DNA of 64,000 nt from Candidatus Nomurabacteria bacterium RIFOXYD2_FULL_35_12 (GTDB taxonomy: Bacteria > Patescibacteriota > Minisyncoccia > Phycocordibacterales > UBA9973), in NCBI GenBank assembly GCA_001786365.1, contig MFWK01000022.1, forward strand, positions 15,087-79,086. The letters run 5' to 3'. Positions 34,418-62,302 of the stretch are shown piece after piece. The notes beneath the pieces were generated by a model. That model made no database searches and was not told the origin of the DNA. It saw only the letters and a list, made by a program, of their open reading frames with translations. The translations under genes and the position numbers were made by a program. Numbering within the stretch: the first letter of the stretch is position 1; the number at the start of each line of letters is the position of its first letter.

Positions 34418-36169
34418 CTAATATACTTCTTTTTTGTAACAACTGTCACAGTAAATAATTTCTGGTCTGTCGGGAGCATAGGAAGTTTCAAATTCATTTT
34501 TGCATCCTTGGTTCATACACTTCCTGTGATAAAGTTTTGGTGGGTTTAATATTTCTATTCTTTCCATATGTCTACAATTTGGACAAAGTTTTGGTAATGG
34601 CACTTCTAATATTTTAGAAATGTTTAATTCATTTTGAATTATACGAAAAGCAGTGGTGCATTTATGATTACAATCACCATTATGTTCGCATTGTATTATT
34701 TCTTTTAAAATATTATCGTCAGCATTTTTTATTACTGGTAGTTTATCAAAAGTAATTGTCGGCTTATAATTTTTTACTTCAGGCTCTTTATACTTATATC
34801 CTTTTCTTAAAATTTCTTCTTTAGTTAATGGAAAATATTCTGAAACCACCGAATCATTATAAGCGAAAGGAATAATTTCAAATGGAAAAAATTCTCCATA
34901 TTTGTATATTCTCCCTTTTTTATCAATAAAAGGCATCTCTTCCATACTTTTTTTAATTTTAAGTACAAATTCATCATATTCTTCTTTACTATATTGTGTA
35001 TTTAAAATACAATATTGCTTTTTACGTAATCCAGCACAAGCAAAAAGATACTCAGAATTATAACAATCATCAGAATATTCAACATTGTGAGAATAATAAA
35101 CTCTGGTAGAAAATTTCACTCTATTATCTCCAAAACCGCTATGTACTTCACAGCATTCTGTTGACCCGAGGCCCACATGGTCAATATCAAAACAATCCTT
35201 TGAATTTGTCCCTGCACAGAAAAAAACGTAATTCATATTTTCACCATCGGGAACAAGAAAAGCATGATGACAGTCTTTGACATTCTCCAAATTATCACCA
35301 GTAGAATTAATTATATTTTTTATGTTTGCGTATTTTCTTGGAAAATTTAAAGAATGTTGCCAAAATTCTTTTTTCATTTTTTCCAGACTTTCTCGGTCTG
35401 ATAAATTCATTTCTTTTACTCTTCTTTCATACTCGTCTTTTGAATATTGTATATTAAAAATACAGTGAGTTTTACCAACTAAATTTGTACACCCAACACA
35501 ACTAGAGCAATTTCTGCAAGCATAAATAAACCATGAATCCATACAATTTTCCGAAAAATATCCATATTTTACTTTATAGCAATTTATTACCCGCAAAGAT
35601 TCATAACAAAGCTCATTATTATGAGAAAAATCTACATCCGAAGAACTTTTTAGATAAAAATTTTGAGCAGAATAATTTGAATCCTCATAATGATGCCCGC
35701 CAAAACAAAGATAAGAATTTTTTATATAAACAATTTGATTCGTGTATTCACTGTTTTCCGCAAAATCCTGATATAACGCACGCCTAGGAATTGATTTTAA
35801 AAGTTCTCCAAGTTGTTCAAAAAAGGATCGGAAAAAATCAATTTTTTTACCAAATTTAAATGGATCCCAATTATCTGAATTGTAACAATCAATACAGTAA
35901 ACTAGATATTTTTGCTCCGGATCATACATAGAAATCACGGATTTCTTACAAAGACCGCAATCCTGTTTATAGAGAGAACGTTCATTTCTAAAAAGCATTC
36001 TTCTCACCATCCGACACTCTGGGCACCAAGTAGGCGGAGGAACTTGGATTTTTTCGTAAAATTTGAAATCATCCGGAAAAATTGTAAATTCTTTTTTGCA
36101 GTTTTGACAATTTTTAGTTTCAACTTTCATAATTTTTTTTTCAAAAGGGCATCTCTTGGAACCATCCAA
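34418..36169 (-). CDS. Cys-rich multi-zinc-ribbon protein, paralog 2
   Basis: 583 aa and at least 45 Cys. N-terminal CQNCKKEFTIFPDDFKFYEKIQVPPPTWCPECR; internal tandem CxxCxxCxGC..L....YCIxNxQYSKxEY repeats; C-terminal CPNCRH...CMNQGCKNEFETSYAPDRPEIIYCDSCYKKEVY. Confidence 0.6.
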   Translation of the reverse strand: MDGSKRCPFEKKIMKVETKNCQNCKKEFTIFPDDFKFYEKIQVPPPTWCPECRMVRRMLFRNERSLYKQDCGLCKKSVISMYDPEQKYLVYCIDCYNSDNWDPFKFGKKIDFFRSFFEQLGELLKSIPRRALYQDFAENSEYTNQIVYIKNSYLCFGGHHYEDSNYSAQNFYLKSSSDVDFSHNNELCYESLRVINCYKVKYGYFSENCMDSWFIYACRNCSSCVGCTNLVGKTHCIFNIQYSKDEYERRVKEMNLSDRESLEKMKKEFWQHSLNFPRKYANIKNIINSTGDNLENVKDCHHAFLVPDGENMNYVFFCAGTNSKDCFDIDHVGLGSTECCEVHSGFGDNRVKFSTRVYYSHNVEYSDDCYNSEYLFACAGLRKKQYCILNTQYSKEEYDEFVLKIKKSMEEMPFIDKKGRIYKYGEFFPFEIIPFAYNDSVVSEYFPLTKEEILRKGYKYKEPEVKNYKPTITFDKLPVIKNADDNILKEIIQCEHNGDCNHKCTTAFRIIQNELNISKILEVPLPKLCPNCRHMERIEILNPPKLYHRKCMNQGCKNEFETSYAPDRPEIIYCDSCYKKEVY

Positions 36170-36186: not shown

Positions 36187-37323
36187 TTAAAACAATTTAA
36201 CTATATCGTGATATGTGACAGCGAGCATCAAAATAATTAAAATACCAAAACCAATCATATTCGCAGTATTGGCAAATTTTGGATTTATGCGTGAACCTTT
36301 TATTTTTTCAATAAGTAAAAAGAAAAGTCGTCCACCGTCTAATGCTGGAAATGGCAATAAATTTATGATTGCGAGGTTCACAGAAATAAGCGCAGTAAAA
36401 GATAAAAGATAAACAAAACCGAATTGATAGGCATCACCCACGATGCCCACCATACCGACAGGTCCAGTAACTGATGAGAAGCTTCCTTTACCCTGTATAC
36501 CCTCTGCAATAAGCGTATAAAGCCCTAAAACAGTACCTTTAGTGATAAACCAAGTTAATGACATTCCCTCTTTTAAGGCTGAAAATAGGGGTAATTTGAC
36601 AGTTCCGATCATGTCCATAGATATGCCAATTTCTGGGATATTATTTGTTTTATTTATTACTGGAGTAACGACAGCTAAATTTATATTTTTGTCTTGTCCG
36701 CGTATGTATCCAACGGTTATTTCCCCGCCTGCAACGCTTTGCGTAGCATTGCGGGCAGGTTTTTTACTATGAGATAATATAAAAGATTTCAAAGTGTCAG
36801 GATTTATATCTGAAACAGAATCTTTACCACTTGCGAGTGAAATAATTTTATCACCAGACTTAAGTCCTGCTATTTGTGCTGGAGATTTCTCTAACACAGA
36901 AACAACTGTTAAATTTATATTACTCAATTTATAACCGGCAGACTCTCCACTCACAGAAGTTGGCAATCCAGACATAAAACCAATTGAAAATAAAAACCAT
37001 GCTAATAAAAGATTCGCAAAAACCCCGGCAAATAAAACTATGGCTTGTTGCCATTTTGGTTTATTAACAAAACTCCTACTCGCATCAGGTCCAAAAGTAT
37101 TTTCATCATCAGGATTCTCACCAAAAATTTTAACAAAACCACCGATAGGTAAAAGATTTAAACTATATTCAGTCTCTCCGTATTTCTTACCATAAATCTT
37201 TGGTGGAAAACCAAAACCAAATTCATCAACCCGAATACCAAACTTTTTTGCAGTAAAAAAATGCCCAAACTCATGGACCAGTACGAGGACGAGAAGTATT
37301 ATTATGAAAATTAATATATTCAA
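36187..37323 (-). CDS. rseP: RIP metalloprotease RseP (site-2 protease) with PDZ domain
   Basis: 378 aa. HEFGHFFTAKKFG (HExxH) and C-terminal LDGG. Contains the in-frame family C element (KPARNATQSVAGGE). Confidence 0.8.
   Translation of the reverse strand: MNILIFIIILLVLVLVHEFGHFFTAKKFGIRVDEFGFGFPPKIYGKKYGETEYSLNLLPIGGFVKIFGENPDDENTFGPDASRSFVNKPKWQQAIVLFAGVFANLLLAWFLFSIGFMSGLPTSVSGESAGYKLSNINLTVVSVLEKSPAQIAGLKSGDKIISLASGKDSVSDINPDTLKSFILSHSKKPARNATQSVAGGEITVGYIRGQDKNINLAVVTPVINKTNNIPEIGISMDMIGTVKLPLFSALKEGMSLTWFITKGTVLGLYTLIAEGIQGKGSFSSVTGPVGMVGIVGDAYQFGFVYLLSFTALISVNLAIINLLPFPALDGGRLFFLLIEKIKGSRINPKFANTANMIGFGILIILMLAVTYHDIVKLF
36723..36759. repeat. Family C GC-rich quasi-palindromic element, copy C1 (in-frame inside rseP)
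   Basis: CCCCGCCTGCAACGCTTTGCGTAGCATTGCGGGCAGG is near-identical to 54214..54250. It sits in a coding region at ~70% GC against ~30% surroundings. Confidence 0.7.
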
Positions 37324-38053: not shown

Positions 38054-39736
38054 TTAGTAAACCTCTTGCTGATAGCATTTCTCACAAAAAATTATCTCTG
38101 ACCGGTCTGGAGAATATGGTGTCTCAAATTTATTTTTACATCCACCCTTCATACATTTCCTATGCCAAAGTTTATTTGGTCCCCTATTTTTAAATCGTCT
38201 TGTATGTCTACACTCAGGGCAATTTCGCGGAATCGGTATATTCATTCTTTTATAAAAAATAAGTTCGTCTGTAATTATCCGATAATTTTTTTCACATTCT
38301 ATGCATACAAAAACTTCTTTATTCACGTCAAAATCTTTTGGTAATTCCAAAATAGAATCTGGAAAATTTTTCCAATCTATGGTTTCTTTACCAAAAGTGC
38401 CACGTGATGTGTCTTCCCATTTAAATCCTTGTTTTAGAGCTTCTTCTTTATTTAATGGAAACTCATCCATTACCGAAGATTCATTGTATCCAAGCGGAGC
38501 AAATTCTTTAGGGAAAAATTCCCCATAAATTCCTTCCTTTTTCATTTTCTCAATAATTTCAACGCGCAATTTCTCATATTCTTCTTTTGTGTATTGCTTA
38601 TTTAAAATGCAATAAGAGCCTTGAATCAAACCTGCACACCCAAAACAATTATTAGAATTAGGACAATTTAAACAATATTCCATAAAATTAGATTCCCAAC
38701 AATAATAACTGCAAATCACATTAGCGCATTGCATTCCAATGTTTAAAGAGTTGTAAATTAGTTCAGCTGTACGTCCGGCAGTATTACAATCCATACAATT
38801 TTTTGCTTCACGCCAAACATGAATAGAATAAGCATTATCTTCCGCATCATAAGAATGAAAACAATGCTTATTATTTCTAACATTCTTCATATAATTACCC
38901 GTAGAATTGACAGCATTTGTAATTTCCGCAAATTTTCTGGGCTTGTCTTTAATAAAATCTGCGAATTCTTTTTTAAAACTCTCAACACCAGAATAAGTGT
39001 CTAGCTTAAAAGATTTTAATTTTTTCTCGTATTCTTCTTTTGTGTATGGTTTATTAAAAATATGATATTTTTGTTCCCTTAAATTTATACATCCAAGACA
39101 GCTTGTACATCCCCTACAATCAAGCAGAAAAAAACTATCTAGACAGTTGTAACAACCTTTTGACCAACGCAAAGAATGACAATCATAACAATCGTCGACT
39201 TCATAAGAAAGTTCAACTTGATTCGTAAAAGAACAATCTGTTAAATCTTTTGAAAGCTGTATCCAATAGCAGTTCGTGCAATTTTCATTGTTAGAAGATT
39301 CCATAATCATGTAACAATTTTTTGTATCAGCAGTATGGTTAAGATATTCAGAATTAACACTGTTCATATGGACGAGAGCAGGTTTTGGAACTTTCTGCCA
39401 CAATTCATTGAACTGCTCAAAAAAAGATTTTTTAGGATTATATTCCAACGCATAATCTTTACCCTGCAAATCATCACTACGCCAACATTTGTGACACCAT
39501 ACGGGATAAGTCTTGTTGGCGCTAAACATAGAGATGGTGTTTTTTTTACAATTATCGCAGACACGTTTATATAGAAACCTTTCATTCCTAAAAATTAGCC
39601 GAAGCTGTGAACGGCACTCTGGACAAAGCTTTGGTGGAAGTACTCCCATCTTTTCATAAAATCCAAAGTCATTCGGCTCTATAGTAAAGTATTTTTTGCA
39701 GTTCTGACATATTTTATTTTCTACTATATACGCCAT
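38054..39736 (-). CDS. Cys-rich multi-zinc-ribbon protein, paralog 3
   Basis: 560 aa. N-terminal CQNCKKYFTIEPNDFGFYEKMGVLPPKLCPECR; internal repeats ending YCILNKQYTKEEYEKL; C-terminal CPECRH...CMKGGCKNKFETPYSPDRSEIIFCEKCYQQEVY. Confidence 0.6.
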   Translation of the reverse strand: MAYIVENKICQNCKKYFTIEPNDFGFYEKMGVLPPKLCPECRSQLRLIFRNERFLYKRVCDNCKKNTISMFSANKTYPVWCHKCWRSDDLQGKDYALEYNPKKSFFEQFNELWQKVPKPALVHMNSVNSEYLNHTADTKNCYMIMESSNNENCTNCYWIQLSKDLTDCSFTNQVELSYEVDDCYDCHSLRWSKGCYNCLDSFFLLDCRGCTSCLGCINLREQKYHIFNKPYTKEEYEKKLKSFKLDTYSGVESFKKEFADFIKDKPRKFAEITNAVNSTGNYMKNVRNNKHCFHSYDAEDNAYSIHVWREAKNCMDCNTAGRTAELIYNSLNIGMQCANVICSYYCWESNFMEYCLNCPNSNNCFGCAGLIQGSYCILNKQYTKEEYEKLRVEIIEKMKKEGIYGEFFPKEFAPLGYNESSVMDEFPLNKEEALKQGFKWEDTSRGTFGKETIDWKNFPDSILELPKDFDVNKEVFVCIECEKNYRIITDELIFYKRMNIPIPRNCPECRHTRRFKNRGPNKLWHRKCMKGGCKNKFETPYSPDRSEIIFCEKCYQQEVY

Positions 39737-39751: not shown

Positions 39752-40474
39752 TTATAATTTTTCTGGAATAATCAAAGCTACTGATTCCATCAAAGTTTTA
39801 GCTGAACTTCCCGGCATACGCAAAAACTCGCGAACTTTGAAAATATGCTCAAAAATTCTAGTGTCAAGGGGCATCCTTGACATCTTGCTATGTAAAACGG
39901 ATTCTAGTGTGTTTAAGAGCTTTAGGGCTTTTGAACGATTAGATTCTATACTTATTTCTTCCTCACTTTCCTCTTCTTTCTTTGGTAATAATTCTTTTAT
40001 AAAATCAATCCTTCTTTGCAAAGGCATATTTATAAATTTCTCCCCGACGTTTTCAGTCGGGGCCCCGACCTCTTCGAGCGTCGGGGCTGCCTTTATTAAA
40101 TAAAATCTAGAAACTAAAGTTTTTAAAAGAGTATTAATATCTGGCACCACAAGAAAAAAATGCGTATTTTCTATCGGCTCTTCAAACATTTTCAATAAAA
40201 CATTTTGCGCATCTAAAGAAAAACTATTTACACTAATCACAAATACTTTTTTAAAAGAAGAAAAAGCTTTGTTGGTAGACATTGAGCGTAAATCAAAAGC
40301 CTCATCAATTTTAAAATTATCTATCGAAATATGGCAAAAATCAGGATTGCCAGAAGTTTTTATATCTAAACTTTCACAAAATTCTAAAATCTCAGGCACA
40401 ACTTTTTCCCTATCTCCTTCTATGAGGTATGCATGATGCAAATTATCTTTATTTAAATGCCTAGCTAAGTTCAT
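39752..40474 (-). CDS. holB: DNA polymerase III delta-prime subunit-like clamp-loader protein
   Basis: 240 aa. HAYLIEGD...LLKMFEEP...VSRF pattern of HolB. Carries the in-frame family B element (APTLEEVGAPTENVG). Confidence 0.65.
   Translation of the reverse strand: MNLARHLNKDNLHHAYLIEGDREKVVPEILEFCESLDIKTSGNPDFCHISIDNFKIDEAFDLRSMSTNKAFSSFKKVFVISVNSFSLDAQNVLLKMFEEPIENTHFFLVVPDINTLLKTLVSRFYLIKAAPTLEEVGAPTENVGEKFINMPLQRRIDFIKELLPKKEEESEEEISIESNRSKALKLLNTLESVLHSKMSRMPLDTRIFEHIFKVREFLRMPGSSAKTLMESVALIIPEKL
40032..40076. repeat. Family B GC-rich double-hairpin element, copy B1 (in-frame inside holB)
   Basis: CCCCGACGTTTTCAGTCGGGGCCCCGACCTCTTCGAGCGTCGGGG: two tandem CCCGAC/GTCGGG hairpins, highly GC-rich. 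Confidence 0.75.
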
Positions 40475-40529
40475 AAAGTTATAAAGTTCTTAAGGTTGTA
40501 AAGTTTGAAAAATTAAATAGTTCTTAAGA

Positions 40530-40649
40530 AAAGCCTTGCGCAGGAGCTTAGAAAATAAATGAGGTAATCCGAATATTATTTTCTTGAGCGACGAGCAGTT
40601 CGCTGGCGAAGCTTCGCCAGATAGATTGCTTTTCGAGAGAAGCTATTTA
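40530..40649. repeat. Family F ~120-bp repeat, copy F1 (candidate structured RNA or MITE)
   Basis: AAAGCCTTGCGCAGGAGCTTAGAAAATAAA...TATTATTTTCTTGAGCGACGAGCAGTTCGCTGGCGAAGCTTCGCCAGATAGATTGCTTTT. About 90% identical to 48327..48445 and to the reverse complement of 61409..61511. Confidence 0.8.
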
Positions 40650-40662
40650 GTTTTTCAAAGAA

Positions 40663-41676
40663 CTACTTTTTGCTTAAAACTGTTTTTTTATACACGTCCA
40701 AATGATCGAGAGCTATACCTGTGCCTTTTACTACACAGAAAAGAGGATCCTCAGCCAAAGCAGCCTTTACTCCAGTCTTTCTATAAACCAAATCAGTGAA
40801 ATTTCGAAGTTGAGAAGAACCTCCAGTCATGATTATTCCTTGATCAATAATATCTGAGGCTAATTCTGGCGGAGTTTCTTGCAATACATCTTTGATAGCT
40901 TGAATTATTTGTTTTAGTTCTCCATCTATCGCTTTGACTATTTCATTTGTTCCCACTCGCGCTGACCTAGGCAAGCCTTGAATAAAATCCCTACCTTTTA
41001 TCGTCACACTGAGCTCTTCTTCTAAAAGCACCGCTGCACCGATTTTAATTTTTACTTCTTCGGCTGTCCTATCACCGATAGCTAAGTTAAAAGTTTTTTT
41101 AATATAATCAGCTATAGCGCCATCTATTTTATTTCCAGCGCACTTTACTGATTTAGAGGCCACAATTCCGCCAAGCGAAATGACTGCTACGTCTGTCGTG
41201 CCCCCACCTATGTCCACAACCATATGCCCTTTCGATTCATAAATTGGAATTCCCGCGCCGATGGCTGCTAAGATAGGCTCTTTGACTACATAAGCATTCT
41301 TTGCACCAGCGCGAATTGCAGCTTCTATGACTGCTCGCCTCTCTGTACTCGTGACTCCTGCAGGAACCGAAACCATCACATCCGGTTTGAAAAAATTAAA
41401 TTTCCCCATCGCTTTATTTATAAAATAACGAAGCATTGCCTCAGTCACACGATAATCTGCTATGACTCCATCTTTCATCGGGCAATAAGTAATGATAGAT
41501 TCTGGGGTCTTTCCAATCATATCTTTGGCTTCAAAACCAATAGCTAGAATTTTATTGTCTTGTTCAGAAACCGCTACAACAGAAGGCTCGTTTAGAATAA
41601 TTCCTTTTCCAGGTAAAAAGACCAAAGTATTGGCTGTTCCTAAATCTATGCCTAGTTTTTTCGTAAAAATACCCAT
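40663..41676 (-). CDS. mreB: Rod shape-determining protein MreB
   Basis: 337 aa. GIDLGTANTLV, DIGGGTTD actin-fold motifs. Confidence 0.9.
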   Translation of the reverse strand: MGIFTKKLGIDLGTANTLVFLPGKGIILNEPSVVAVSEQDNKILAIGFEAKDMIGKTPESIITYCPMKDGVIADYRVTEAMLRYFINKAMGKFNFFKPDVMVSVPAGVTSTERRAVIEAAIRAGAKNAYVVKEPILAAIGAGIPIYESKGHMVVDIGGGTTDVAVISLGGIVASKSVKCAGNKIDGAIADYIKKTFNLAIGDRTAEEVKIKIGAAVLLEEELSVTIKGRDFIQGLPRSARVGTNEIVKAIDGELKQIIQAIKDVLQETPPELASDIIDQGIIMTGGSSQLRNFTDLVYRKTGVKAALAEDPLFCVVKGTGIALDHLDVYKKTVLSKK

Positions 41677-41794
41677 CCCGTTTAGAAGCAGGTCGCGGTC
41701 AACAAACCTCGACTTTGCTTAGTTATGTTATTAAATTTTTTATCTTTTATAAACATGATTCTTATATAAAACTGCGACCGTGGCTTCTAACGGG
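41677..41794. repeat. Family A MITE-like element, copy A3
   Basis: CCCGTTTAGAAGCAGGTCGCGGTC...GCGACCGTGGCTTCTAACGGG. The left end directly abuts the mreB start codon (41676). Confidence 0.75.
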
Positions 41795-41836
41795 ACCCAT
41801 GAGCCTATGTTATCATATTTATGTTAAAATCAAAGA

Positions 41837-42172
41837 ATGGATGACGAAGAAAAAAATGATATAGAAAACAATCTCAAAAACCCATTTATAGGATATTTGG
41901 CAAATTTAAAGAAACATAAACAAGCCATAAACCCTGTTCATGAAATTGTAAATTGCTATTATAAAATGAATGGCTGGGAAAAAATGCCAAAAGATTTTTA
42001 TACCGGTAGATATGCTTATAATAAGCTCGCGAAAGAAGCAAAAATGCTCTACCAAGCTTGTAATGAAGTTTTAGATGATGCTATTTGGGCTTTAGACAAA
42101 ATGAAATACCTCGCCGAGAAAGGCAAATTCGACTGGTCTATAATCACCTGTTTGAAACACAAATTAAAATAG
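41837..42172 (+). CDS. Hypothetical protein
   Basis: 111 aa ORF, no recognisable motif. Confidence 0.3.
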   Translation: MDDEEKNDIENNLKNPFIGYLANLKKHKQAINPVHEIVNCYYKMNGWEKMPKDFYTGRYAYNKLAKEAKMLYQACNEVLDDAIWALDKMKYLAEKGKFDWSIITCLKHKLK

Positions 42173-42173
42173 T

Positions 42174-42878
42174 TTAAGAAACAATTACTGTAAATTCCCC
42201 TCTTTGCTTGTCAGGATTTTTATTGAAATATTCTAAAATTTCGTGTGGTAAACCAGTTTTAAATTCTTCATAGATTTTTGTCAATTCGCGAGCTACGCAG
42301 ACTTTTTTATGAGGGCAAAATTCAACAAGCGATGCTAATGTTTTTAAAATTCTGTGAGGAGATTCATAAAATACCATCGTGCGTTCAGAAATTGCTATTT
42401 CTTTAAATAAAGTTTCTCTGCCTTTCTTGTGCGGAAGAAAACCAAGAAAAGTAAATTCATGAATAGGCATTCCTGATGCAGAAAGCGCGGCAATAACGGC
42501 TGAAGCTCCAGGGATTGGAATCACTTGAACTTCTTCATTGGTAAATTTTTCTTTTATTCTAGAAACGAGCATTGAGCCCGGGTCTGATATTGTGGGAGTG
42601 CCAGCATCAGAAACCAATGCAACATTTTTCCCGTCGTATAATAATTTAAAAATTTTATCTAATTTCTCATTCTTTCCGAGTTTATAATCAGCTCCAGCTA
42701 CATCGTCAGACGGATAGCTCATCGTTTCTTTATTTATTTCATATTTATTTAAAATTTTCTTTGTCTCTCGCGTATCTTCACACAATATCAAATCCACGCT
42801 TTTAAGCGTCTCGATAGCTCGGAGTGTGATGTCTCCCATATTTCCTATCGGCGTCGCCACAACATAAAATTTAGACAT
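42174..42878 (-). CDS. rsmI: 16S rRNA (cytidine1402-2'-O)-methyltransferase
   Basis: 234 aa. FYVVATPIGNMGDITLRAIETLKSVDLILCEDTR tetrapyrrole-methylase fold of RsmI. Confidence 0.85.
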   Translation of the reverse strand: MSKFYVVATPIGNMGDITLRAIETLKSVDLILCEDTRETKKILNKYEINKETMSYPSDDVAGADYKLGKNEKLDKIFKLLYDGKNVALVSDAGTPTISDPGSMLVSRIKEKFTNEEVQVIPIPGASAVIAALSASGMPIHEFTFLGFLPHKKGRETLFKEIAISERTMVFYESPHRILKTLASLVEFCPHKKVCVARELTKIYEEFKTGLPHEILEYFNKNPDKQRGEFTVIVS

Positions 42879-42883
42879 AAATT

Positions 42884-43330
42884 TTATTTCCTATACTTTC
42901 TAGTTCTCCACTTGTCTGCAATCTTAACACGAGTGAGTGAACGTTCGAGTTCAGCTTCAAAATGCTCAAAGTCCACATGGTCTTTGTTTTCCATTTGTTT
43001 TTCCAATTCAATAGCACGAGCTTTTGCTTTTTCTATTTTTTCATCTGAAATTTCAGACACATGTTCGGCAAAGTCCGCCAAAATAGCGACTTCGGTAATT
43101 TTATTTTCACCTTGTTTTATTTCCATAAACCCTCCAGCAACTGCCATCGGAACATGTTCACCATTTACGACAGCCACAATATCTCCAGATGCAAGACCTG
43201 CAATGAGTGGAATATGTTCCGGCAAAATGGTTATCTCACCTTCCGTAGTAGGCAAAGTGACTTGATCTACCATTTCTTCCAGAACTAGTCTTTCTGGGGT
43301 GATTATTTTAAGTTTTAATTGTTTTGACAT
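42884..43330 (-). CDS. atpC: F1 ATP synthase epsilon subunit
   Basis: 148 aa. LKLKIITPERLVLEEMVDQVTLPTTEGEITILPEH... beta-sandwich plus C-terminal helices. Confidence 0.8.
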   Translation of the reverse strand: MSKQLKLKIITPERLVLEEMVDQVTLPTTEGEITILPEHIPLIAGLASGDIVAVVNGEHVPMAVAGGFMEIKQGENKITEVAILADFAEHVSEISDEKIEKAKARAIELEKQMENKDHVDFEHFEAELERSLTRVKIADKWRTRKYRK

Positions 43331-43455
43331 AAATTTTTGACTTTAAAATTTTTAAATAGTGCTTTTAAAAATCGTACGGAGGCCGACGGGCCGAAGTCTT
43401 AGCAAAAATTTAGTAAAATTTTATGCGGGTTTTTAAAAGTACCTATTTAAAAATT

Positions 43456-44856
<1,401 letters not shown>

Positions 44857-45861
44857 TTAACTTACACTTGCCATACCCGCACTGATTTCTGATATTTCCC
44901 TAGTAATGTTTCCCTGCCTTGCTTTATTGAACACCAGGGTCAGATCATCTATCATTTCTCCTGAAGCATCAGAAGCATTTTTCATTGCGACCATTCGACT
45001 CGACTGTTCAGAAGCATTTGATTCGAGCAACATTTGATAAATCTGCATCCTTGTAATCTTCTCCGCGAGTGACCCTATCAATGTGTTCATGTCTCCTTCT
45101 ATTAAATAACTTATACTTTTTTCTCTCCCGACGCTTTCGGTCGGGACTCCGACCTCTCCAGGCGTCGGAGCTAAATTGTTTATTAAATCTTGTAATTCTG
45201 TTTTAGATACAGGCAATATTTGTTTTATATTTGGCTTCTGATTTAAAGCGGAAATAAAATCAGTATAAGCTACTAAAACTTTATCGTAATGAAGAAGGAT
45301 ATATTCATCTATGGTAAATTTTGAAATTGGAACAACTTCTGTCAAAGAAATATTATTGCTCAAATCTGCAAAAGTGGCAACGACATTTACTCCGAGTCTG
45401 CGCATCGCCACATCTCCTTTTTTACCGACAGAAACAATATCTACCCCGTTAGAAGCAGGTCGCCCCGAGGTGACCGTAGCACTCTCGTGCTCGAGAGAGC
45501 GGCTTCTAACGGGGTCTAAATTTATGTTTTGACTTTTTAAAAATGAAATCGTTTTTTTAATAACTTGCGCATTATAAGATCCACACAAACCCCTGTTTGA
45601 TGTAATGAGCACAAGCAACACATTTGCTTTTACCCCACCTTTCTTTTCTCTTTCAGTAAAAAGTGGATGGGAATTCTCCTCTATATTTTTAGCTATTGAT
45701 GTAAGAACTTCCCACGAATATCCAGCATAAAGACGTGACGCCAAAGTAGAAGCCACCGCACGCTTCATCTTACTAGCAGCCACGAGCTCCATCGCTTTCG
45801 TGATTTTCTTTGTGTTCTTTACAGACTTTATGCGTCGTTTTATTTCTTTAGTTCCCGCCAT
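44857..45861 (-). CDS. atpG: F1 ATP synthase gamma subunit (with two in-frame repeat-element insertions)
   Basis: Conserved N-terminus MAGTKEIKRRIKSVKNTKKITKAMELVAASKMKRA at 45861 (the ORF track's upstream extension to 45954 is unlikely). Inserts encode LDPVRSRSLEHESATVTSGRPASNG (family A) and APTPGEVGVPTESVG (family B). Confidence 0.85.
   Translation of the reverse strand: MAGTKEIKRRIKSVKNTKKITKAMELVAASKMKRAVASTLASRLYAGYSWEVLTSIAKNIEENSHPLFTEREKKGGVKANVLLVLITSNRGLCGSYNAQVIKKTISFLKSQNINLDPVRSRSLEHESATVTSGRPASNGVDIVSVGKKGDVAMRRLGVNVVATFADLSNNISLTEVVPISKFTIDEYILLHYDKVLVAYTDFISALNQKPNIKQILPVSKTELQDLINNLAPTPGEVGVPTESVGREKSISYLIEGDMNTLIGSLAEKITRMQIYQMLLESNASEQSSRMVAMKNASDASGEMIDDLTLVFNKARQGNITREISEISAGMASVS
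45127..45168. repeat. Family B element, copy B2 (in-frame inside atpG)
   Basis: CCCGACGCTTTCGGTCGGGACTCCGACCTCTCCAGGCGTCGG. Same architecture and reading frame (A-P-T...VG..TE.VG) as B1 and B4. Confidence 0.75.
45444..45514. repeat. Family A element, copy A4 (in-frame inside atpG)
   Basis: CCCCGTTAGAAGCAGGTCGCCCCGAGGTGACCGTAGCACTCTCGTGCTCGAGAGAGCGGCTTCTAACGGGG. Termini match A1/A3, and the interior holds nested palindromes. Confidence 0.7.
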
Positions 45862-45922
45862 TTGATATTTCTTTTGCCTGTCCCGTACGAAGCTTTGCTT
45901 TCGTTCGGGATACCGGCCATAA

Positions 45923-47425
45923 TTATTTACTAAAACCCATCTTAAAATCACCAATTACTTTTTTTAATTCTACTTCGCCTTTATCTGTCCACATTTTGGA
46001 CTCTTTGATTTCTTTGTAGAAAGTTTTTGCATGACGCTCACTGTATTCTATAAGTCCTTGCTCAAATTCTTTTATTTTATCAATAGAAACATCATCCATA
46101 AGCCCTTTTGTGAGAGCATAAAGTGTAACAATTTGATTTTCAATTTTCATCGGAGAATATTGAAGTTGTTTCAAAACTTCCACAGCTCTTTTACCCCTTT
46201 CAAGTTGTTTCTTTGTAGATTCATCAAGGTCGGAACCGAATTGAGCAAATGCTTCAAGTTCGCGGAATTGCGCAAGGTCAAGCTTTAATGTTCCAGCCAC
46301 TTTTTTCATTCCTTTTATTTGCGCGCTAGAACCGACACGAGAAACAGAAAGACCGACGTTTACAGCCGGACGGATACCTTTATAGAAAAGATCTGTTTCC
46401 AAAAAGATTTGTCCATCGGTAATAGAAATAACGTTTGTCGGAATATAAGCAGACACGTCGCCAGCTTGCGTCTCCACTATCGGAAGCGCAGTGATAGAAC
46501 CACCGCCATATTTTGCATTTCTTCGGCAAGCGCGTTCTAGTAAACGAGAGTGTAAATAGAAAACATCTCCTGGATACGCTTCACGTCCTGGTGGTCGGCG
46601 GAGAAGAAGAGAAATTTCACGATATGCCACAGCATGTTTAGAAAGATCATCATAAATAATTAAAACATCTTTTCCTTGATCCATAAAATATTCCGCAATA
46701 GAAACTCCGGCATAAGGAGCAATATATGACATTGAAGCAGCTTCTGATGCTCCAGCTGAAACTATAACTGTATAATCCATAGCACCACCGGCTTCCAACC
46801 TTGCTCCTAATTTTCGAAGCTTGGAATCCTTTTGACCAATAGAAACATAAACGCAAATCATATTTTGACCCTTTTGATTTAAAATTGCATCGATAGCGAT
46901 AGCTGTCTTTCCTGTTTGTCTATCACCAATGATGAGCTCACGTTGACCACGGCCGATTGGAATAATGGCATCGATAACTTTGATACCGGTAGCAACCGCT
47001 TGGTCCACACTTTGTCTAGTGACAACTCCTGGAGCCACCTTTTCAATTGGATATGTTTTTGAGGCTTTGATTGCTCCTTTTCCATCAATCGGCGCACCAA
47101 TAGCATTTACCACTCTGCCTAAAATACTGTCTCCTACTGGTATTTCCAAAATTTTTCCGGTTGCTTTTACTTCATCTCCTTCTTTAATTTTTGAAAAGTC
47201 TCCTAGAATAATTACTCCGACTGCATCTTCTTCCAAATTGAGCGCCACACCGACTTCACCATTTGGAAAAGTCACCATTTCGGATGATTTGATATCGGAA
47301 AGTCCAGAAACCTTCGCAATACCATCAAAAACCTCTATTACTTGACCTACCTTTTCAACTTTTAATTGAAGTGAAAAATTATCTATCTCCTTTTTTAAAT
47401 TTTCTACTATTGTGTTGCTGTTCAT
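45923..47425 (-). CDS. atpA: F1 ATP synthase alpha subunit
   Basis: 500 aa. Walker A GDRQTGKT. Confidence 0.95.
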
Positions 47426-47829
47426 ACTTTTATTAAATATTCTTGTAATTTTTCAATTTTATTTTTAATCGATAGGTCAATAACTTCATCATTCACTTCT
47501 ATTTTTAATCCACCTAATAATTTTTTATCTATATATTCCTTGAGAACAACTTCTTTTACTAAATAACGTTTCTTTAAAGTTTGTTCTAGATGTGTTTTAA
47601 CCTGATGACTGAGTGCTTCCACACTTGATATCTTCACTTCTAATCTCCCATCTGCATTGTTTATTATTTTTTTTAATCTAGAAAGTATATCAGGAGCTTT
47701 AGAAAGTAAACGTCTACGAAATAAAAATTTAACAACTTTTTCAGATATATTTTTTTGCTCAGAACTACTCTTATCTTTAAACATAAGGTAGATTGCGCGA
47801 GCTATGTCATTGTTTGATGTTGTTGTCAT
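47422..47829 (-). CDS. atpH: F1 ATP synthase delta subunit (OSCP)
   Basis: 135 aa, position between atpF and atpA, helical N-domain. Short for delta, hence moderate confidence. Confidence 0.65.
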
Positions 47830-48290
47830 TATAAATTATTCAAGTCTTTTTTACTCCCAAGTATCTTTTCTGTAGCTTTCATCGCAATATCAACAATTTC
47901 TTTTCTTGCTGATTCGACTATGGCTTTTTTATCAATCTCCATTTGTATAATTCTTTTCTTATTCCATTCATCATTGTCTTTCTTTATCCTCTCGAGATTT
48001 TCTATTTTTAATTTTTCCAAGTCTTTTTGAAGTTCTTTTTGAGCATCTGCAGAAATTTTTCTAAGTTTAATTGTATTTTCCTTATATTCTTCGCCAGCTT
48101 TCTCTAATAATCCGTTGGCTTTTTTTGAATCAATTAAACCTTTCTTTATCTTTTCTGTACGCTCGGCCATCAACTTGCCTAGTGGCTTTAAAGCAAACAT
48201 ATACAAAACAACAAAGACAATAATAAAATTTATCGCTTGAGCGATGATAATTTTCCAGTCTATGTGAAATGTAGAAATAATTGAATCCAT
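47829..48290 (-). CDS. atpF: Fo ATP synthase subunit b
   Basis: 153 aa. Single N-terminal TM helix then a long charged coiled coil. Confidence 0.75.
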   Translation of the reverse strand: MDSIISTFHIDWKIIIAQAINFIIVFVVLYMFALKPLGKLMAERTEKIKKGLIDSKKANGLLEKAGEEYKENTIKLRKISADAQKELQKDLEKLKIENLERIKKDNDEWNKKRIIQMEIDKKAIVESARKEIVDIAMKATEKILGSKKDLNNL

Positions 48291-48326
48291 TGTTTTTATT
48301 TAAAAAAATTAAAATAGTTCTTTTTA

Positions 48327-48445
48327 AAAGCCTTGCGCAGGAGCTTAGAAAATAAAAATGGTATTCCATTTATTATTTTCTTGAGCGACGAGCAGTTCGC
48401 TGGCAAAGCTTTGCCAGATAGATTGCTTTTTAAAAGAAGCTATTT
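48327..48445. repeat. Family F ~120-bp repeat, copy F2 (between atpE and atpF)
   Basis: Same sequence as F1. Its central palindrome reads CTGGCAAAGCTTTGCCAG here. Confidence 0.8.
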
Positions 48446-48457
48446 TAAATTTTCAAA

Positions 48458-48735
<278 letters not shown>

Positions 48736-48771
48736 TTAATAATAATAATTTCGACTAATAATTTATAATAA

Positions 48772-49662
48772 TCACACTGATACTACCACATTTTCTTCAT
48801 GCTTTTCATGCTCATCATGTGCATCATGATCCGTGGCTGAAATTGTAAAATAAACAACCAAAAGCATTGAAAATATGAGAGCTTGAATGACTCCAACCAA
48901 TATTTCTAAAAATACGAATGGAATAGGTAAAATATAAGCAAAAATGGCTGCCATTGACGCCAAAAGGACTTCTCCGGCAAAAACGTTACCAAAAAGTCGG
49001 AACGACAATGATGCTATTTTTGCAAACTCACCGACAAGCTCGAGTAGACCGACAAAGAACGTGATTGGGGCGACAATAATTATCGTTTTGTCTTTTTTTA
49101 TCTTCGTAAATATCTGCCCCAGCGCTTTTAGATTAACATACTTGTTAAAAATTTTCCATATACCGATTGAAAAAATACCGAACAAATTTGCTCCAATAAC
49201 AGCCATGATGGCGAGAGCAATAGTGGTGTTCACATCGGCTGTGCCACCACGAAGAAATGGGATAAAAGCTAAACCGTGTTCACCTTTTTCTAAAAGTCCT
49301 AAACCACCGATCGGTAAAAGCCCTAGCCAATTGTTTATAAGAATAAAAAAGAAAACGGAAATAGCTATTGGAAAAACGATAACTGAGAGTGACCTATTGT
49401 TTGTCACTTGATCACATAGATCAAGCGCGCCTTCTACAACAATTTCAAAAACATTTTGTAAAACATTTGGAACTTCTTTTAATTTTTTTCGTAAAATTAC
49501 AGCAAGAATTATTATTATCAAAACTGCTAACCAGCTCGTGACGAGAGCATTTGTAAAAGTAAAATTATTTGTATGAAAAACAGGTTCTGCAAAAAGAGTA
49601 GTCTCGTAACTAATTTCCCCTCCTGTTTCTGTATTTACGTTTATTTCTTTTGCTTCTATCAT
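48772..49662 (-). CDS. atpB: Fo ATP synthase subunit a
   Basis: 296 aa polytopic membrane protein. Conserved Arg context LSFRLFGNVFAGE. Confidence 0.85.
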   Translation of the reverse strand: MIEAKEINVNTETGGEISYETTLFAEPVFHTNNFTFTNALVTSWLAVLIIIILAVILRKKLKEVPNVLQNVFEIVVEGALDLCDQVTNNRSLSVIVFPIAISVFFFILINNWLGLLPIGGLGLLEKGEHGLAFIPFLRGGTADVNTTIALAIMAVIGANLFGIFSIGIWKIFNKYVNLKALGQIFTKIKKDKTIIIVAPITFFVGLLELVGEFAKIASLSFRLFGNVFAGEVLLASMAAIFAYILPIPFVFLEILVGVIQALIFSMLLVVYFTISATDHDAHDEHEKHEENVVVSV

Positions 49663-49664: not shown

Positions 49665-49931
49665 TTATTTCTTGTCTTTTTTATCTTCTATTTCTAAAGT
49701 TTTCATATATTTAAATACTACTCGCACTATGCCATATGAAGAGATTATGAATCCTAAACCAGTGCATCCTAAAAATATCCAAGGGTCTGTGCCGTAATGA
49801 CTGTCTAATGCTTTACCTATTATGAGCGCCAAAACTATAGGCACTACAACCCAAGTCGAAACCCTGCTGAATACATCAAAAGCAGGCTTCCAATCTATTT
49901 TTTTATTACTTTCATTAGTCACAAAAAACAA
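49665..49931 (-). CDS. Small membrane protein at the head of the atp operon (AtpI/AtpZ-like)
   Basis: 88 aa, two TM helices, immediately upstream of atpB. Confidence 0.4.
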   Translation of the reverse strand: MFFVTNESNKKIDWKPAFDVFSRVSTWVVVPIVLALIIGKALDSHYGTDPWIFLGCTGLGFIISSYGIVRVVFKYMKTLEIEDKKDKK

Positions 49932-54190: not shown

Positions 54191-54916
54191 TTACTTCTTT
54201 TCTGCCTTCTTTTCCCCGCCTGCAACGCTATGCGCAGCATTGCGGGCAGGTTCTTTAGCTGGTGTGGTGGTGGCTGGTTCTGCTCCAGGCACTCCTTCTT
54301 CTTCTTTCTTGCCTTTCTTCTCTACTTCAATAGCGGACAAATCAGGAGCAACTACGACTTCTTCTTTTTCTTCAACTTGAGCAACGACAGAAGCTACGAC
54401 ATCGCCTGTATTTGTGATGACGACGACTCCGGATGGCAATTTTATATCAGAAACGAAAACGTTATTATCCAAGGTTTCAAGTTTTGAAATATCTACAACT
54501 AAATTGTGCGGTAAATCTGCAGGCAAAGCTTCGATTTCTATTTCATGAAGAACTTTCACAAGATTTCCAATACCACTCTTTACCGCATTTGAAATACCTT
54601 CGAATACAAGAGGAACCTTGACTCGAATTTTCTTTTTCATATCAATAACCAAAAAATCCACATGGATTGGCTCATCGGTGACTGGGTCTACTTGCACTTC
54701 ATGAATAAGAGCATTCACATCGCCAGCAGGAGTAGAAATCTTGATAGCAGAAGACTCTCCGGCATCTCGCCAGATTTTCTTGAATTCAACGATAGAAAGT
54801 GTTACAGATGTGGTCTTTTCCCCTGCTCCGTAAAAAACAGCTGGGATTTTCCCAGACTTTCTCAAAACACCCAATTTTGTATCTAAATCTCTTTTATCAG
54901 CTTTAATTACAAACAT
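54191..54916 (-). CDS. rplY: 50S ribosomal protein L25 / general stress protein Ctc (with C-terminal repeat-containing tail)
   Basis: Conserved start MFVIKADKRDLDTKLGVLRKSGKIPAVFYG at 54916 (the ORF track's 54976 start is probably too far upstream). The C-terminal tail ...EPARNAAHSVAGGEKKAEKK is encoded by the family C element. Confidence 0.75.
   Translation of the reverse strand: MFVIKADKRDLDTKLGVLRKSGKIPAVFYGAGEKTTSVTLSIVEFKKIWRDAGESSAIKISTPAGDVNALIHEVQVDPVTDEPIHVDFLVIDMKKKIRVKVPLVFEGISNAVKSGIGNLVKVLHEIEIEALPADLPHNLVVDISKLETLDNNVFVSDIKLPSGVVVITNTGDVVASVVAQVEEKEEVVVAPDLSAIEVEKKGKKEEEGVPGAEPATTTPAKEPARNAAHSVAGGEKKAEKK
54214..54250. repeat. Family C element, copy C2 (in-frame at 3' end of rplY)
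   Basis: CCCCGCCTGCAACGCTATGCGCAGCATTGCGGGCAGG: 35 of 37 positions identical to C1, same frame (PARNA.HSVAGGE). Confidence 0.7.
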
Positions 54917-56044: not shown

Positions 56045-56126
56045 CCCGTTAGAAATAGGAAATGCTTTGCATTTCCATTGTTATATTACTTTTAATAAAA
56101 ATTTTAACCATATGATTTCTAACGGG
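56045..56126. repeat. Family A MITE-like element, copy A5
   Basis: TIRs CCCGTTAGAAAT / ATTTCTAACGGG, with an internal palindrome GGAAATGCTTTGCATTTCC. The left end abuts the fba start codon (56044). Confidence 0.75.
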
Positions 56127-61380: not shown

Positions 61381-61408
61381 AAATTTATATAGGAATATCT
61401 ATTTTTAT

Positions 61409-61564: not shown

Positions 61565-62302
61565 ATGTCTAAATTAATATTTTTTGATACAGAAACCACC
61601 GGTAATACAGACAAAGATTTTCTTTGTCAGATTGCTTACAAAACAGATAAAGAAACTTTTACAGGCTTATATAAACCAGAAATCAAAATCCCTCCGGAAG
61701 CTTCTGCTGTGCATCACCTAACGAATAAAATGCTTACTGATAAACCCTCTTTTAAAGATTCCGGTGATCAGCAAAAAATCAAAAAACTTTTTGAAGATAA
61801 AGATTCAGTAGTTGTAGCTCACAACGCACCTTTTGACTTGATAATGATAAAAAAAGAAGGCATTGAGCCTAAAAAATTCATCTGCACCCTACGAGTCGCC
61901 AGACATTTAGATAAAGAAGAAAAAATAGAAAGATATAATTTACAATATTTGCGTTACTTGCTCGAAATAGAAGTAGATGCCACAGCTCACGACGCACTCG
62001 GTGACGTGCTCGTATTGGAACAACTTTTTGAAAGGCTATATAAAAAAGTGAAAGAAGAAATAGCCCCGACGTCTAAAGGAGTCGGGGTCACGACCGAAAA
62101 CGTCGTGAATAAAATGATAGAAATTTCCTCGCACCCCTCCCTTTTGCGTTCTTTTGGTTTTGGTAAACATAACGGTAAAAGAATAGAAGAAGTGGCAAAA
62201 ATGGATAGAGGTTATCTGGAGTGGCTCCTAGCCCAAAAACTCGCGGGAGACCAAATGGACGAGGATTGGATTTATACCTTGAAGCATTACTTAGATAAAT
62301 AA
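61565..62302 (+). CDS. DnaQ-like 3'-5' exonuclease (DEDDh) with C-terminal extension
   Basis: 245 aa. Exo I FFDTETTG, Exo II VAHNAPFD, Exo III HDALGD. The extension includes in-frame family B element B4 (APTSKGVGVTTENVV). Confidence 0.75.
   Translation: MSKLIFFDTETTGNTDKDFLCQIAYKTDKETFTGLYKPEIKIPPEASAVHHLTNKMLTDKPSFKDSGDQQKIKKLFEDKDSVVVAHNAPFDLIMIKKEGIEPKKFICTLRVARHLDKEEKIERYNLQYLRYLLEIEVDATAHDALGDVLVLEQLFERLYKKVKEEIAPTSKGVGVTTENVVNKMIEISSHPSLLRSFGFGKHNGKRIEEVAKMDRGYLEWLLAQKLAGDQMDEDWIYTLKHYLDK
62065..62107. repeat. Family B element, copy B4 (in-frame inside the dnaQ-like gene)
   Basis: CCCCGACGTCTAAAGGAGTCGGGGTCACGACCGAAAACGTCGTG. Confidence 0.7.

Follow-up and report, generated by a model that had tools for sequence, protein, structure and literature searches.

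The atpG gene and its two extra segments

The window analysed here, a stretch of 64 kb (64,000 nucleotides) from a tiny-genome groundwater bacterium, carries the atp operon on its minus strand. In this operon the gene for the gamma subunit of F1 contains two short palindromic segments, one belonging to a repeat family termed A and the other to a family termed B.

44857..45861, minus strand: atpG (F1 gamma subunit), 334 aa, intact reading frame spanning both inserts
45444..45514: family A element, 71 bp, with 14-bp perfect terminal inverted repeats (ACCCCGTTAGAAGC with the flanking base) and a two-hairpin interior
45440..45443: flanking direct repeat TCTA, copy 1 (TAGA on the gene strand; a single TAAA at the empty site of the closest relative)
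45515..45518: flanking direct repeat TCTA, copy 2, as read in the sequence
45127..45168: family B double-hairpin palindrome (CCCGAC..GTCGGG, CTCCGAC..GTCGGAG), read in atpG as A231-G245 (APTPGEVGVPTESVG)

The true start of atpG is the ATG at 45861, from which the protein begins with MAGTKEIKRR, as does every homologue. The deposited protein, annotated as "hypothetical protein", starts further upstream and has 364 aa, and its N-terminal extension has no counterpart in homologues. The Pfam ATP-synt family matches the atpG protein end to end (E = 3e-79), and outside the inserts the comparison with the closest relative, L001, gives dN/dS = 0.054 at dS = 0.8. By its sequence, atpG is an intact and functional gene under strong purifying selection. 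The extra segments correspond to residues 116-140 (insert A) and 231-245 (insert B). An earlier note on this DNA had placed a family A and a family B element inside atpG and had stated that neither is present in canonical gamma subunits; both segments indeed proved to be copies of dispersed repeat families, and the alignment blocks against solved gamma subunits skip them both.

In an AlphaFold2 model of the gamma subunit (mean pLDDT 80), residues 119-122, 124-130 and 231-247 have pLDDT < 50 and form coil between confident secondary-structure elements, so that alignment and modelling, the check proposed for the inserts, place both of them in low-confidence coil loops. Insert A lies between the helix 91-110 and the strand 140-145 of the Rossmann-like domain; insert B lies between the last strand and the C-terminal helix, which is the position of the chloroplast gamma insertion in an alignment with 6fkf chain g. 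The two inserts are thus predicted, on the model, to be floppy surface loops added to the gamma protein. Among 120 homologues the lengths of these loops range from 24 to 55 residues (A) and from 27 to 42 residues (B), and relatives carry unrelated perfect palindromes in the same two loops. The view that an essential subunit tolerating two insertions is a notable case therefore holds only in part: both inserts are real, but their tolerance is less remarkable, because many relatives have various palindromic inserts in both loops and loop B is where chloroplast gamma has its natural insertion of roughly 35 residues.

Probable repeated insertion of family A at one codon of atpG

The core of the atpG copy of family A (CCCGTTAGAAG...CTTCTAACGGG) spans 45445-45513, and a complementary terminal C/G pair extends it to 45444-45514. 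Its perfect terminal inverted repeats measure 12-14 bp, and its predicted RNA fold is very stable (-44.8 kcal/mol, z = -6.4), a structure that might affect expression from within the coding region. With the 4-bp flanking duplication the element adds 71 + 4 = 75 bp, or 25 codons, read as D116-V140 (DPVRSRSLEHESATVTSGRPASNGV). L001, which shares 84.5% nucleotide identity and 10 kb of conserved gene order with the window, lacks precisely the 75 bp at 45444-45518 (a synteny gap in which the sequence is present in the window only), in agreement with the earlier proposal that the atpG segments are insertions. In the codon alignment with L001 the insert boundary falls exactly at TTA|GAT (Leu115/Asp116).

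A family A insert is present at the same codon in two further relatives, L003 and L004, and in a neighbour-joining tree insert-A-bearing gamma subunits occur in at least four lineages, each with insert-free sisters. The flanking duplication fits the local sequence of each lineage, being TAGA/TAGA in the window and TGGA/TGGA in L003. Between lineages the insert is identical at 70/75 and 73/75 nucleotides, the rest of the gene at 71-73% and third codon positions at about 50%. We infer from these sequences that insert A was gained independently at the same atpG codon in at least four lineages; selection in favour of the insert could account for part of this recurrence. In L003 a compensatory pair of substitutions in the terminal stem (G>A/C>T) replaces two amino acids (R>K, S>F), and the changes between family A copies point to constraint on the fold of the nucleic acid, not on the peptide.

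Family B and other elements of the window

Besides the atpG copies, further elements of families A and B, members of a third family termed F and related palindromes were located in the operon and its neighbourhood:

48696..48735: family B copy in the atpB-atpE spacer, with TTAAT direct repeats at 48691-95 and 48736-40
40041..40090: in-frame copy of family B within holB (APTLEEVGAPTENVG)
62062..62109: family B again, in frame within an ORF for a DnaQ-like exonuclease (APTSKGVGVTTENVV)
48305..48445: family F element, 141 nt, with AT-rich inverted ends AAATAGTTCTTTTTAAAAGC, in the atpE-atpF spacer
40508..40648: family F copy in the holB-mreB spacer
43341..43461: inverted-repeat element, 121 bp, in the atpD-atpC spacer, with 31-nt F-like arms and a GC-rich centre
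41677..41794: 118-bp copy of family A placed exactly at the start codon of mreB, with ACCCAT duplicated on both sides
45882..45910: between atpA and atpG, a small A-like hairpin (CCCGTACGAAGC..GCTTTCGTTCGGG) that differs from the A terminus at two positions

The double hairpin of family B (about 42 bp) occurs four times in the window and never in 50 shuffled sequences. Three of the four copies are in frame within genes (holB, atpG and the exonuclease), and the fourth, between atpB and atpE where the earlier note had placed a family B copy, carries a 5-bp flanking duplication and has a fold z-score of -6.1. This intergenic copy is missing from both L001 and L003, each of which has a single ATTAA/ATTAG-type site. 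The linker that received the atpG copy is hypervariable, with 27 to 42 residues among relatives, which makes the empty site less clean; relative to the nearest relative the gene gains a net 8 residues, and comparison with relatives gave no clean empty site for family B in atpG or holB.

The family F element noted between atpE and atpF is indeed present, 88-89% identical to the copies at 40508-40648 and 61394-61525; L001 holds a different element at this site. The GC-rich patch at 43371..43400, between atpD and atpC, is also real and forms the centre of the 121-bp inverted-repeat element, which is 94% identical to its counterpart in L001. The description of the operon as punctuated by three repeat families is right in that such elements are present, but they amount to five elements rather than three patches. 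L001 lacks the family A copies in atpG and upstream of mreB, the intergenic family B copy and the family F copy between holB and mreB, which are only 2 bp apart in L001. At mreB, 124 bp (41677-41800) are found only in the window in the synteny comparison. A scan for sigma-70 promoters and terminators around the mreB copy and across the operon gave results at or near shuffle expectation. The A-like hairpin at 45882-45910 (fold -19.6 kcal/mol, z = -3.8) was overlooked in the first reading of the sequence; relatives have an ORF of about 110 aa in its place in the atpA-atpG spacer.

Family A across genomes

The family A 11-mer, with at most one mismatch, occurs 7 times in the window, while shuffled sequences contain 0.52 occurrences on average and 0/100 reach 7. 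The family has four copies in the 64 kb; those outside atpG lie at 20469-20583, 41677-41794 and 56045-56126. Each of two collection scans returned at least 120 matches, from the Candidate Phyla Radiation (CPR) and from other phyla; among the matches listed, the elements are 62-125 bp long, and they have no ORF of their own. Family A is best described as a large MITE-like superfamily. Its conserved termini are YCCCGTTAGAAG...CTTCTAACGGGR, copies from distant phyla share the same 11 terminal nt, and in 115-bp copies the terminal inverted repeats reach up to 23 bp. A scan of viral contigs gave a single match, and hence no sign of carriage by phages.

The target duplication of family A is 4 bp long (TNNA) and lies inside a preferred RTNNAY site. 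Among the matches listed in the genome scan, the bases adjoining the element are complementary (C/G or T/A) in 115/125 copies and duplication of the central four bases of the flanks is seen in 71-80% of the 125 copies; among the metagenome matches listed, the flanks agree at five or more of six positions in 69/115 copies. A 6-bp duplication was considered and rejected: agreement drops to 42-49% of copies at flank positions 1 and 6, compared with 71-80% at the four central ones, so a 4-bp duplication with complementary terminal bases is preferred.

Two of the three reading phases through the family A termini are free of stops and the third holds stop codons. The atpG copy is read in the predominant phase (PVRS...SNG). 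Among the matches listed, 26 copies lie inside long ORFs, of which 24 have a length divisible by three and 23 are read as PVRS..SNG; only 4 of the listed copies would disrupt an ORF, compared with these 26 in-frame and stop-free ones. The in-frame hosts include rsmH, secA, dnaE, uvrC, purD, carB, metG and ribD, the gene for ribosomal protein L25, and homologues of RNase J, hypD and tatD. One subfamily shows four helices with 93% pairing and 11 covarying pairs, a result reached by 0/500 shuffles and far above that of shifted-register controls. A subfamily of about 115 bp adjoins a start codon exactly, in a single orientation, in 116/118 copies among the matches listed.

Origin of the atpG inserts

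The most probable explanation, to which we assign a probability of about 0.8, is that both atpG segments are frame-keeping insertions of short, non-coding, self-complementary mobile repeats that are translated into surface loops. Family A would have integrated at the Leu115/Asp116 codon boundary, and the family B copy would have landed in the variable linker ahead of the C-terminal helix. Copies that break genes would be removed by selection, so that the survivors are found in permissive loops, at gene starts and between genes. The elements are probably selfish, were presumably moved by a transposase and should be close to neutral for the enzyme. Examples of the peptides predicted to span the insert junctions of the gamma subunit are ...SQNINLDPVR and ...ASNGVDIVSVGK. 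The loci fetched, about 1.75 Mb, contained no pair of family A termini 0.2-4 kb apart with a transposase gene between them and no autonomous element bounded by such termini; they had been chosen by their short elements, so that an insertion sequence could have been missed. Among the matches listed from a metagenome scan with a 23-nt extended end, there were only elements of 60-190 bp and one unconvincing 3.5-kb pair with a degenerate partner.

The inserts might instead be exapted loops that regulate the enzyme, as does the redox loop of chloroplast gamma or the mycobacterial gamma loop. In favour of such a role, four or more lineages carry insert A at the same codon, with 93-97% conservation of its nucleotides, and insert B stands where the chloroplast regulatory insertion does. 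We nevertheless regard it as improbable: the closest relatives do without insert A, the same sequences recur in intergenic DNA and in proteins with no relation to gamma, copies differ by substitutions that keep base pairing but not the amino acid, both inserts lack cysteines and have pLDDT < 50, and other relatives carry unrelated palindromes in the same loops. Equally doubtful is a single origin of insert A in an ancestral gamma subunit followed by many precise losses. Although the identical position in all carriers and the high similarity of the sequences fit a common origin, this history requires parallel changes in both duplicated flanks (TAGA/TAGA versus TGGA/TGGA) as well as many exact deletions across the tree, and synonymous sites have diverged far more than the insert has.

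That the palindromes are intervening sequences, processed from the RNA or excised from the DNA before translation to leave a canonical protein, seems very improbable. The terminal stem does bring the two direct repeats together and the predicted structure is very stable, but frame and stop codons would then be irrelevant, which is contradicted by the excess of in-frame, stop-free copies over disrupting ones and by the 24/26 in-ORF copies of length divisible by three among the matches listed; these coding-copy statistics also answer the suggestion that the inserts are spliced out. No intron or ribozyme of Rfam was matched, and an intein is excluded in 25 residues without splicing motifs. As for an assembly or binning artefact, the source is a metagenome-assembled genome and palindromes can be mis-assembled; the chance of this is nevertheless close to negligible, since the 364-aa protein is 100% identical on 10 contigs from several sources (cluster P0001), the same atpG insert occurs in two contigs from other samples (one from JGI and one from ENA Hainich), the reading frame is unbroken and the flanking sequence follows the same order as in relatives. 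With no frameshift present and the protein identical on these contigs, the possibility of a frameshift or sequencing error raised in the earlier note falls away.

Several specific candidates were also rejected. An intein or self-splicing intron does not fit inserts of only 25 and 15 residues for which Rfam gives no match at gathering score; a hammerhead or twister ribozyme was dismissed for want of a conserved core in the three-way junction, and an HrcA CIRCE operator because only one arm is similar. Rfam searches, at the gathering score and, over 40000-49000, at E <= 5, returned only tRNAs and a chance miRNA match.

Within the preferred reading of the inserts as mobile repeats, the folded nucleic acid of family A may have a function of its own, because termini of 11 nt identical across phyla and covarying hairpins would not be expected of pure junk. 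We tentatively consider it possible, though rather unlikely, that family A is a structured mobile module, shared across phyla, with ends shaped so as to do genes no harm or even to serve them. This idea would draw on the open phases through the termini, the duplication that regenerates a start codon and the start-codon-bound subfamily of about 115 bp. If it were true, either transposition would be directed to translation starts or the element would serve genes as a portable leader. A leader of this kind could act through its stem, by linking the ribosome-binding site to the AUG, or through translational coupling by a short upstream ORF. The copies on either side of atpE (B upstream, F downstream), like those in the other spacers of the operon, might in that case adjust subunit stoichiometry.

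Comparison with known mobile palindromes

Rickettsia palindromic elements (RPEs; Ogata et al. 2000, summarised in PMC10969869) are short dispersed hairpin repeats of about 100-150 bp known from Rickettsia, the group in which selfish DNA within genes was first seen. Like RPEs, the elements reported here stand in frame in unrelated housekeeping genes of a reduced genome, encode peptides predicted to be compatible with the fold and have intergenic copies too. Unlike RPEs, they measure 69-71 bp in family A and about 42 bp in family B, and their hosts are CPR bacteria; family A further differs in its clear terminal inverted repeats and 4-bp duplication, its presence in several phyla and its one subfamily abutting start codons. 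Since size (69-71 bp) and host (CPR) differ, we liken the atpG elements to RPEs by description, as an analogue and not as members. Bacterial MITEs (Correia, ERIC, RUP and others) have been reviewed (PMC10969869, PMC3184786). Family A shares with them terminal inverted repeats, target-site duplication, empty sites, many small copies without coding capacity and occasional in-frame fusion with host ORFs, but differs in the covariation of its interior hairpins, the identity of its termini across phyla and its polar association with start codons (116/118 among the matches listed).

In the literature searched there was no report of such elements in CPR bacteria, nor of the family A terminal sequence. 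The atpG elements add a case, from a bacterial group new to the phenomenon, of mobile palindromes of the Rickettsia type in genes, and extend their occurrence in essential genes to the small and poorly understood genomes of the CPR, where such inserts inflate and obscure protein annotation. They also amount to an experiment of nature that tells which F1 rotor loops can accommodate insertions, and they bring to light an element family that is very widespread, has conserved ends and a covarying structure, and is strikingly associated with start codons.

REP, BIME and REPIN elements are mobilised by RAYT transposases and are extragenic by definition. Family B resembles REP/REPIN elements as a short, GC-rich, imperfect palindrome forming a hairpin doublet, but 3/4 of its copies are intragenic and the intergenic one has a 5-bp flanking duplication. 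The var1 GC clusters of yeast and the DHEs of Allomyces are GC-rich palindromic mobile elements of AT-rich fungal mtDNA, some of them in frame; these are organellar and unrelated in sequence, and are likened here by description. The chloroplast and cyanobacterial gamma insertion (6fkf chain g) lies, like insert B, between the LLP(V/L)S strand and the start of the (Y/F)xxExD helix. That insertion is folded, has about 35-40 residues and bears a redox Cys pair, whereas insert B has 15 residues, no Cys and predicted disorder (pLDDT < 50), and is a copy of a dispersed repeat.

The atp Operon and the atpG Gene

The window, with a G+C content of 35%, carries the following atp genes.

Genes of the atp operon
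49665-49931, minus strand, atpI-like
48772-49662, minus strand, atpB
48458-48676, minus strand, atpE
47829-48290, minus strand, atpF
47422-47829, minus strand, atpH
45923-47425, minus strand, atpA
44857-45861, minus strand, atpG (start, ATG at 45861)
43456-44820, minus strand, atpD
42884-43330, minus strand, atpC

The start of atpG was placed at the ATG at 45861 because all 120 gamma homologues listed begin with MAGTKEIKRR. There is no support for a longer TTG-initiated ORF that reads through the upstream spacer, nor for the deposited "hypothetical protein" of 364 aa, which does the same. The gamma protein is 100% identical to homologue cluster P0001, found on 10 contigs, and the Pfam ATP-synt model spans it from end to end. 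The earlier note had described two selfish-element insertions in this gene, with coordinates and peptide translations that proved correct, and the observation was confirmed: alignments to solved gamma subunits break at residues 116-140 (insert A, of family A) and 231-245 (insert B, of family B), the two segments foreign to canonical gamma. The reading frame has no frameshift and no internal stop. Outside the inserts, comparison with L001 (JGI Ga0172379_10007087, a close relative sharing gene order over 10 kb at 84.5% nucleotide identity) gave dN = 0.043, dS = 0.81 and dN/dS = 0.054. Judged from its sequence, atpG is a living gene.

The atpA-atpG spacer (45862-45922) contains an A-like hairpin overlooked by the earlier note, which splits an apparent degenerate second copy of the ~24 nt at the start of atpG (ATGGCCGG...CAAAAGAAAT). 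At this place L001 and another relative, L003, have a ~110-aa ORF of unassigned function (28% identical between the two) that the window lacks. In locus L126, from a further relative, an MNT/HepT-type toxin-antitoxin pair (NTP_transf_2 and HepT-like, 842-1497) lies directly upstream of atpG, in place of atpA.

Repeat Copies and Empty Sites

Both atpG inserts are palindromic and form local G+C peaks (58-60%, against 35% for the genome). The terminal 11-mer of family A occurs seven times in the window (shuffle mean 0.52; none of 100 shuffles reached seven), and the family B double hairpin is present in four copies, against none in 50 shuffles.

Family A and family B copies in the window
20469-20583, family A element, intergenic
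41677-41794, family A element, intergenic, at the mreB start
45445-45513, family A element, in atpG
56045-56126, family A element, intergenic
40041-40090, family B copy, in holB
45127-45168, family B copy, in atpG
48696-48735, family B copy, between atpB and atpE
62062-62109, family B copy, in a DnaQ-like exonuclease gene

Additionally, there are three copies of family F (141 nt) with 88-89% identity. The GC-rich patch reported between atpD and atpC is real and forms the centre of a 121-bp element (43341-43461), whose 31-nt inverted arms are similar to those of family F. Because this element is 94% identical to L001 (118 of 126 aligned positions) despite a synonymous divergence of ~0.8 in atpG, the comparison suggests a constrained non-coding element in the spacer. 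The three coding family B copies, including the in-frame copy in the DnaQ-like exonuclease ORF (61565-62302), all have the same phase and orientation, with the peptide APTxxxVGxPTExVG.

Segments present in the window and absent from L001
75 bp, 45444-45518, inside atpG
124 bp, 41677-41800, at the start of mreB
30 bp, part of the family B copy in the atpB-atpE spacer
~189 bp, in the holB-mreB spacer (2 bp long in L001)
24 bp each, family B sites of atpG and holB

In the codon alignment, insert A falls exactly between TTA and GAT of atpG, the gene strand reading TTA GAC/CCCG...CGGG/GTA GAT in the window and TTA AAT in L001. From this alignment, the 75 bp (25 codons) resolve into a 4-bp TAGA duplication and an element of 71 bp that has complementary C...G ends. 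Similarly, the family B copy between atpB and atpE has ATTAA on both flanks, while L001 has a single ATTAA. For the coding family B copies no clean empty site was found in L001, where 8-9 unrelated residues stand opposite the peptide. The selfish-element reading of atpG is supported by the dispersed repeats and, for insert A, by the flanking duplication and the empty site.

Position of the Inserts and Recurrent Insertion in Gamma

An AlphaFold2 model of gamma, built from 109 sequences (mean pLDDT 80, pTM 0.75), places insert A in coil that follows helix 91-110 and precedes strand 140-145, and insert B in coil that joins helix 220-230 to the C-terminal helix 258-332. The pLDDT is below 50 at residues 119-122, 124-130 and 231-247, and the neighboring secondary-structure elements are confident. 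Among the 120 homologues listed, the first region is 24-55 residues long and the second 27-42. On this model, both inserts are shown to lie in variable, low-confidence loops. When gamma was aligned with its spinach chloroplast counterpart (6fkf chain g, residues 214-362), loop B matched the segment in which the chloroplast protein has its redox-regulatory insertion.

Insert A or same-ended variants occur at the identical codon in homologue clusters P0003, P0005, P0044, P0068 and P0109, and the carriers fall in at least four places in the neighbor-joining tree, with insert-free sisters beside each. This pattern could reflect one ancient gain followed by repeated loss, but the losses would need to be exact, many times. 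Moreover, the flanking duplication tracks the sequence of each lineage (TAGA/TAGA in the window, TGGA/TGGA in L003, TTGA/TAGA in L004), and the inserts are identical at 70/75 and 73/75 nt, against 71-73% for the rest of the gene and ~50% at third codon positions. Because of these lineage-specific duplications, the low insert divergence and the exact losses otherwise required, we favor independent gains.

In other relatives, unrelated perfect palindromes occupy both gamma loops. In locus L128 (homologue P0051) these reach -49 and -46.5 kcal/mol, one with a 22-bp stem (CCCAGAAGACGGTCTTCGGGG...), and it follows that the same two loops are used by several element families. Besides, family-B-like PT..VG.PTE.VG peptides were found in loop B of 11 of the 120 homologues listed.

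Distribution and Coding Frame of Family A

A scan of one genome per species for the two 11-nt ends, 40-70 nt apart, recovered at least 120 stretches. Among the matches listed, family A was found in the CPR groups Nomurabacteria, Yanofskybacteria, Kaiserbacteria, Falkowbacteria, Doudnabacteria and Saccharibacteria, and outside CPR in MAGs labelled Planctomycetota, Deltaproteobacteria, Nitrospirae, Elusimicrobiota and others. Of the 125 copies listed, 115 are bordered by complementary bases (C/G or T/A), and at the four central flank positions the two sides match in 71-80% of the 125 (consensus TNNA). In five loci from Planctomycetota MAGs (L008, L031, L045, L046 and L066), the same inverted ends have extra conserved flanks, CCTGC on one side and CTGGGAAGC..GCTACTGC on the other, and therefore the stem there is part of a larger repeat unit.

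Twenty-six of the 125 copies lie inside long ORFs; the length is divisible by three in 24, and 23 have the phase PVRS...SNG. Four further copies disrupt a gene, in that they would be within an ORF if the element were removed. Of 115 elements, about a quarter (the 26 in frame and the 4 disrupting) lie within a long ORF, against 57% of random positions in the same loci. The phase bias is explained by the terminal sequence, which is open as CCC GTT AGA AG and C CCG TTA GAA G and has a stop as CC CGT TAG. Host genes include rsmH, secA, dnaE, uvrC, pepA, purD, carB, metG, ribD and those for a pseudouridine synthase, ribosomal protein L25 and homologues of RNase J, hypD and tatD.

Elements Adjoining Start Codons

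All three intergenic family A copies in the window (20469-20583, 41677-41794 and 56045-56126) adjoin a start codon, the duplication including the ATG. Among the 126 genome-scan elements listed, 39 have, at offset 0, a start codon that opens an ORF of 60 codons or more, against 0-5 at every other offset from -12 to +12. A metagenome scan with a 23-nt extended end gave at least 120 loci (L129-L248); among the 118 elements in the loci listed, mostly ~115 bp, 116 adjoin an ORF start codon (median ORF 202 codons), always by the same end (...GACCGCGACCTGCTTCTAACGGG directly followed by ATG). In 78 of the 118 listed, a second ATG on the far side begins an upstream ORF that is short (median 17 codons) and has its stop inside the element. 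An upstream co-directional ORF ends close by in 68 of them, nine on TAG in the terminal repeat. Targeting may explain the association, and so may the loss of all insertions but these harmless ones.

Fold of Family A

The atpG copy is predicted to form a 14-bp closing stem with two hairpins (-44.8 kcal/mol, z = -6.4), and two hairpins within the closing stem were predicted for 38 of 52 GC-rich copies. Across the 19 members of one subfamily, drawn from separate genomes, pairing in four helices is 93%, with changes on both sides at 11 pairs; none of 500 shuffles matched that pairing, and shifted registers are 30-47% paired. The L003 atpG insert has a compensatory change in its closing stem that alters two residues. 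Because of this covariation and compensatory change, the nucleic-acid structure, not the peptide, is what selection or the copying mechanism acts on. An Rfam search found no matching family.

Possible Mechanism and Related Systems

By sequence comparison, the elements are shown to be dispersed repeats with inverted ends, flanking duplications, empty sites in related genomes and coding copies in frame. Movement may be driven by a transposase making 4-bp staggered cuts; 4-bp duplications are produced by families such as IS5, IS701 and IS1380. The inserts are probably translated and may be near-neutral for the enzyme. No autonomous partner of family A was found in the fetched loci of the genome and metagenome scans.

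Among known systems, the Rickettsia palindromic elements come closest; they are present as in-frame insertions in many housekeeping genes (PMC10969869) and work in the same way as the atpG case. However, the present family differs in size, host clade and cross-phylum distribution, and has clear inverted ends with a duplication and a start-codon subfamily. Family B resembles a REP doublet but is not restricted to extragenic sites as REPs are. We found no description of these elements in CPR in the literature, the coverage of which was incomplete, so an earlier description is possible. Taken alone, the atpG case clearly exemplifies, with good documentation, an event of a known kind, and family A is of more interest than that case by itself.

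Other Repeats and Paralogs in the Window

Another palindromic family (CCCCGCCTGCAACGC...GCATTGCGGGCAGG) has copies at 36720-36766 and 54211-54257 that are 94% identical, the former in frame within an RseP-like M50 peptidase ORF (..KKPARNATQSVAGGE..). A 50-nt inverted-repeat pair (17263-17312 and 59949-59998; 88% complementary, 42 kb apart) is probably a further dispersed family. Three paralogous genes lie at 136-1309, 34418-36169 and 38054-39736. One of the three stands between holB and frr, a place that is empty in L001. The two that lie wholly inside the window encode proteins of ~560-580 aa that are rich in Cys and have zinc-ribbon-like CxxC motifs at either end.
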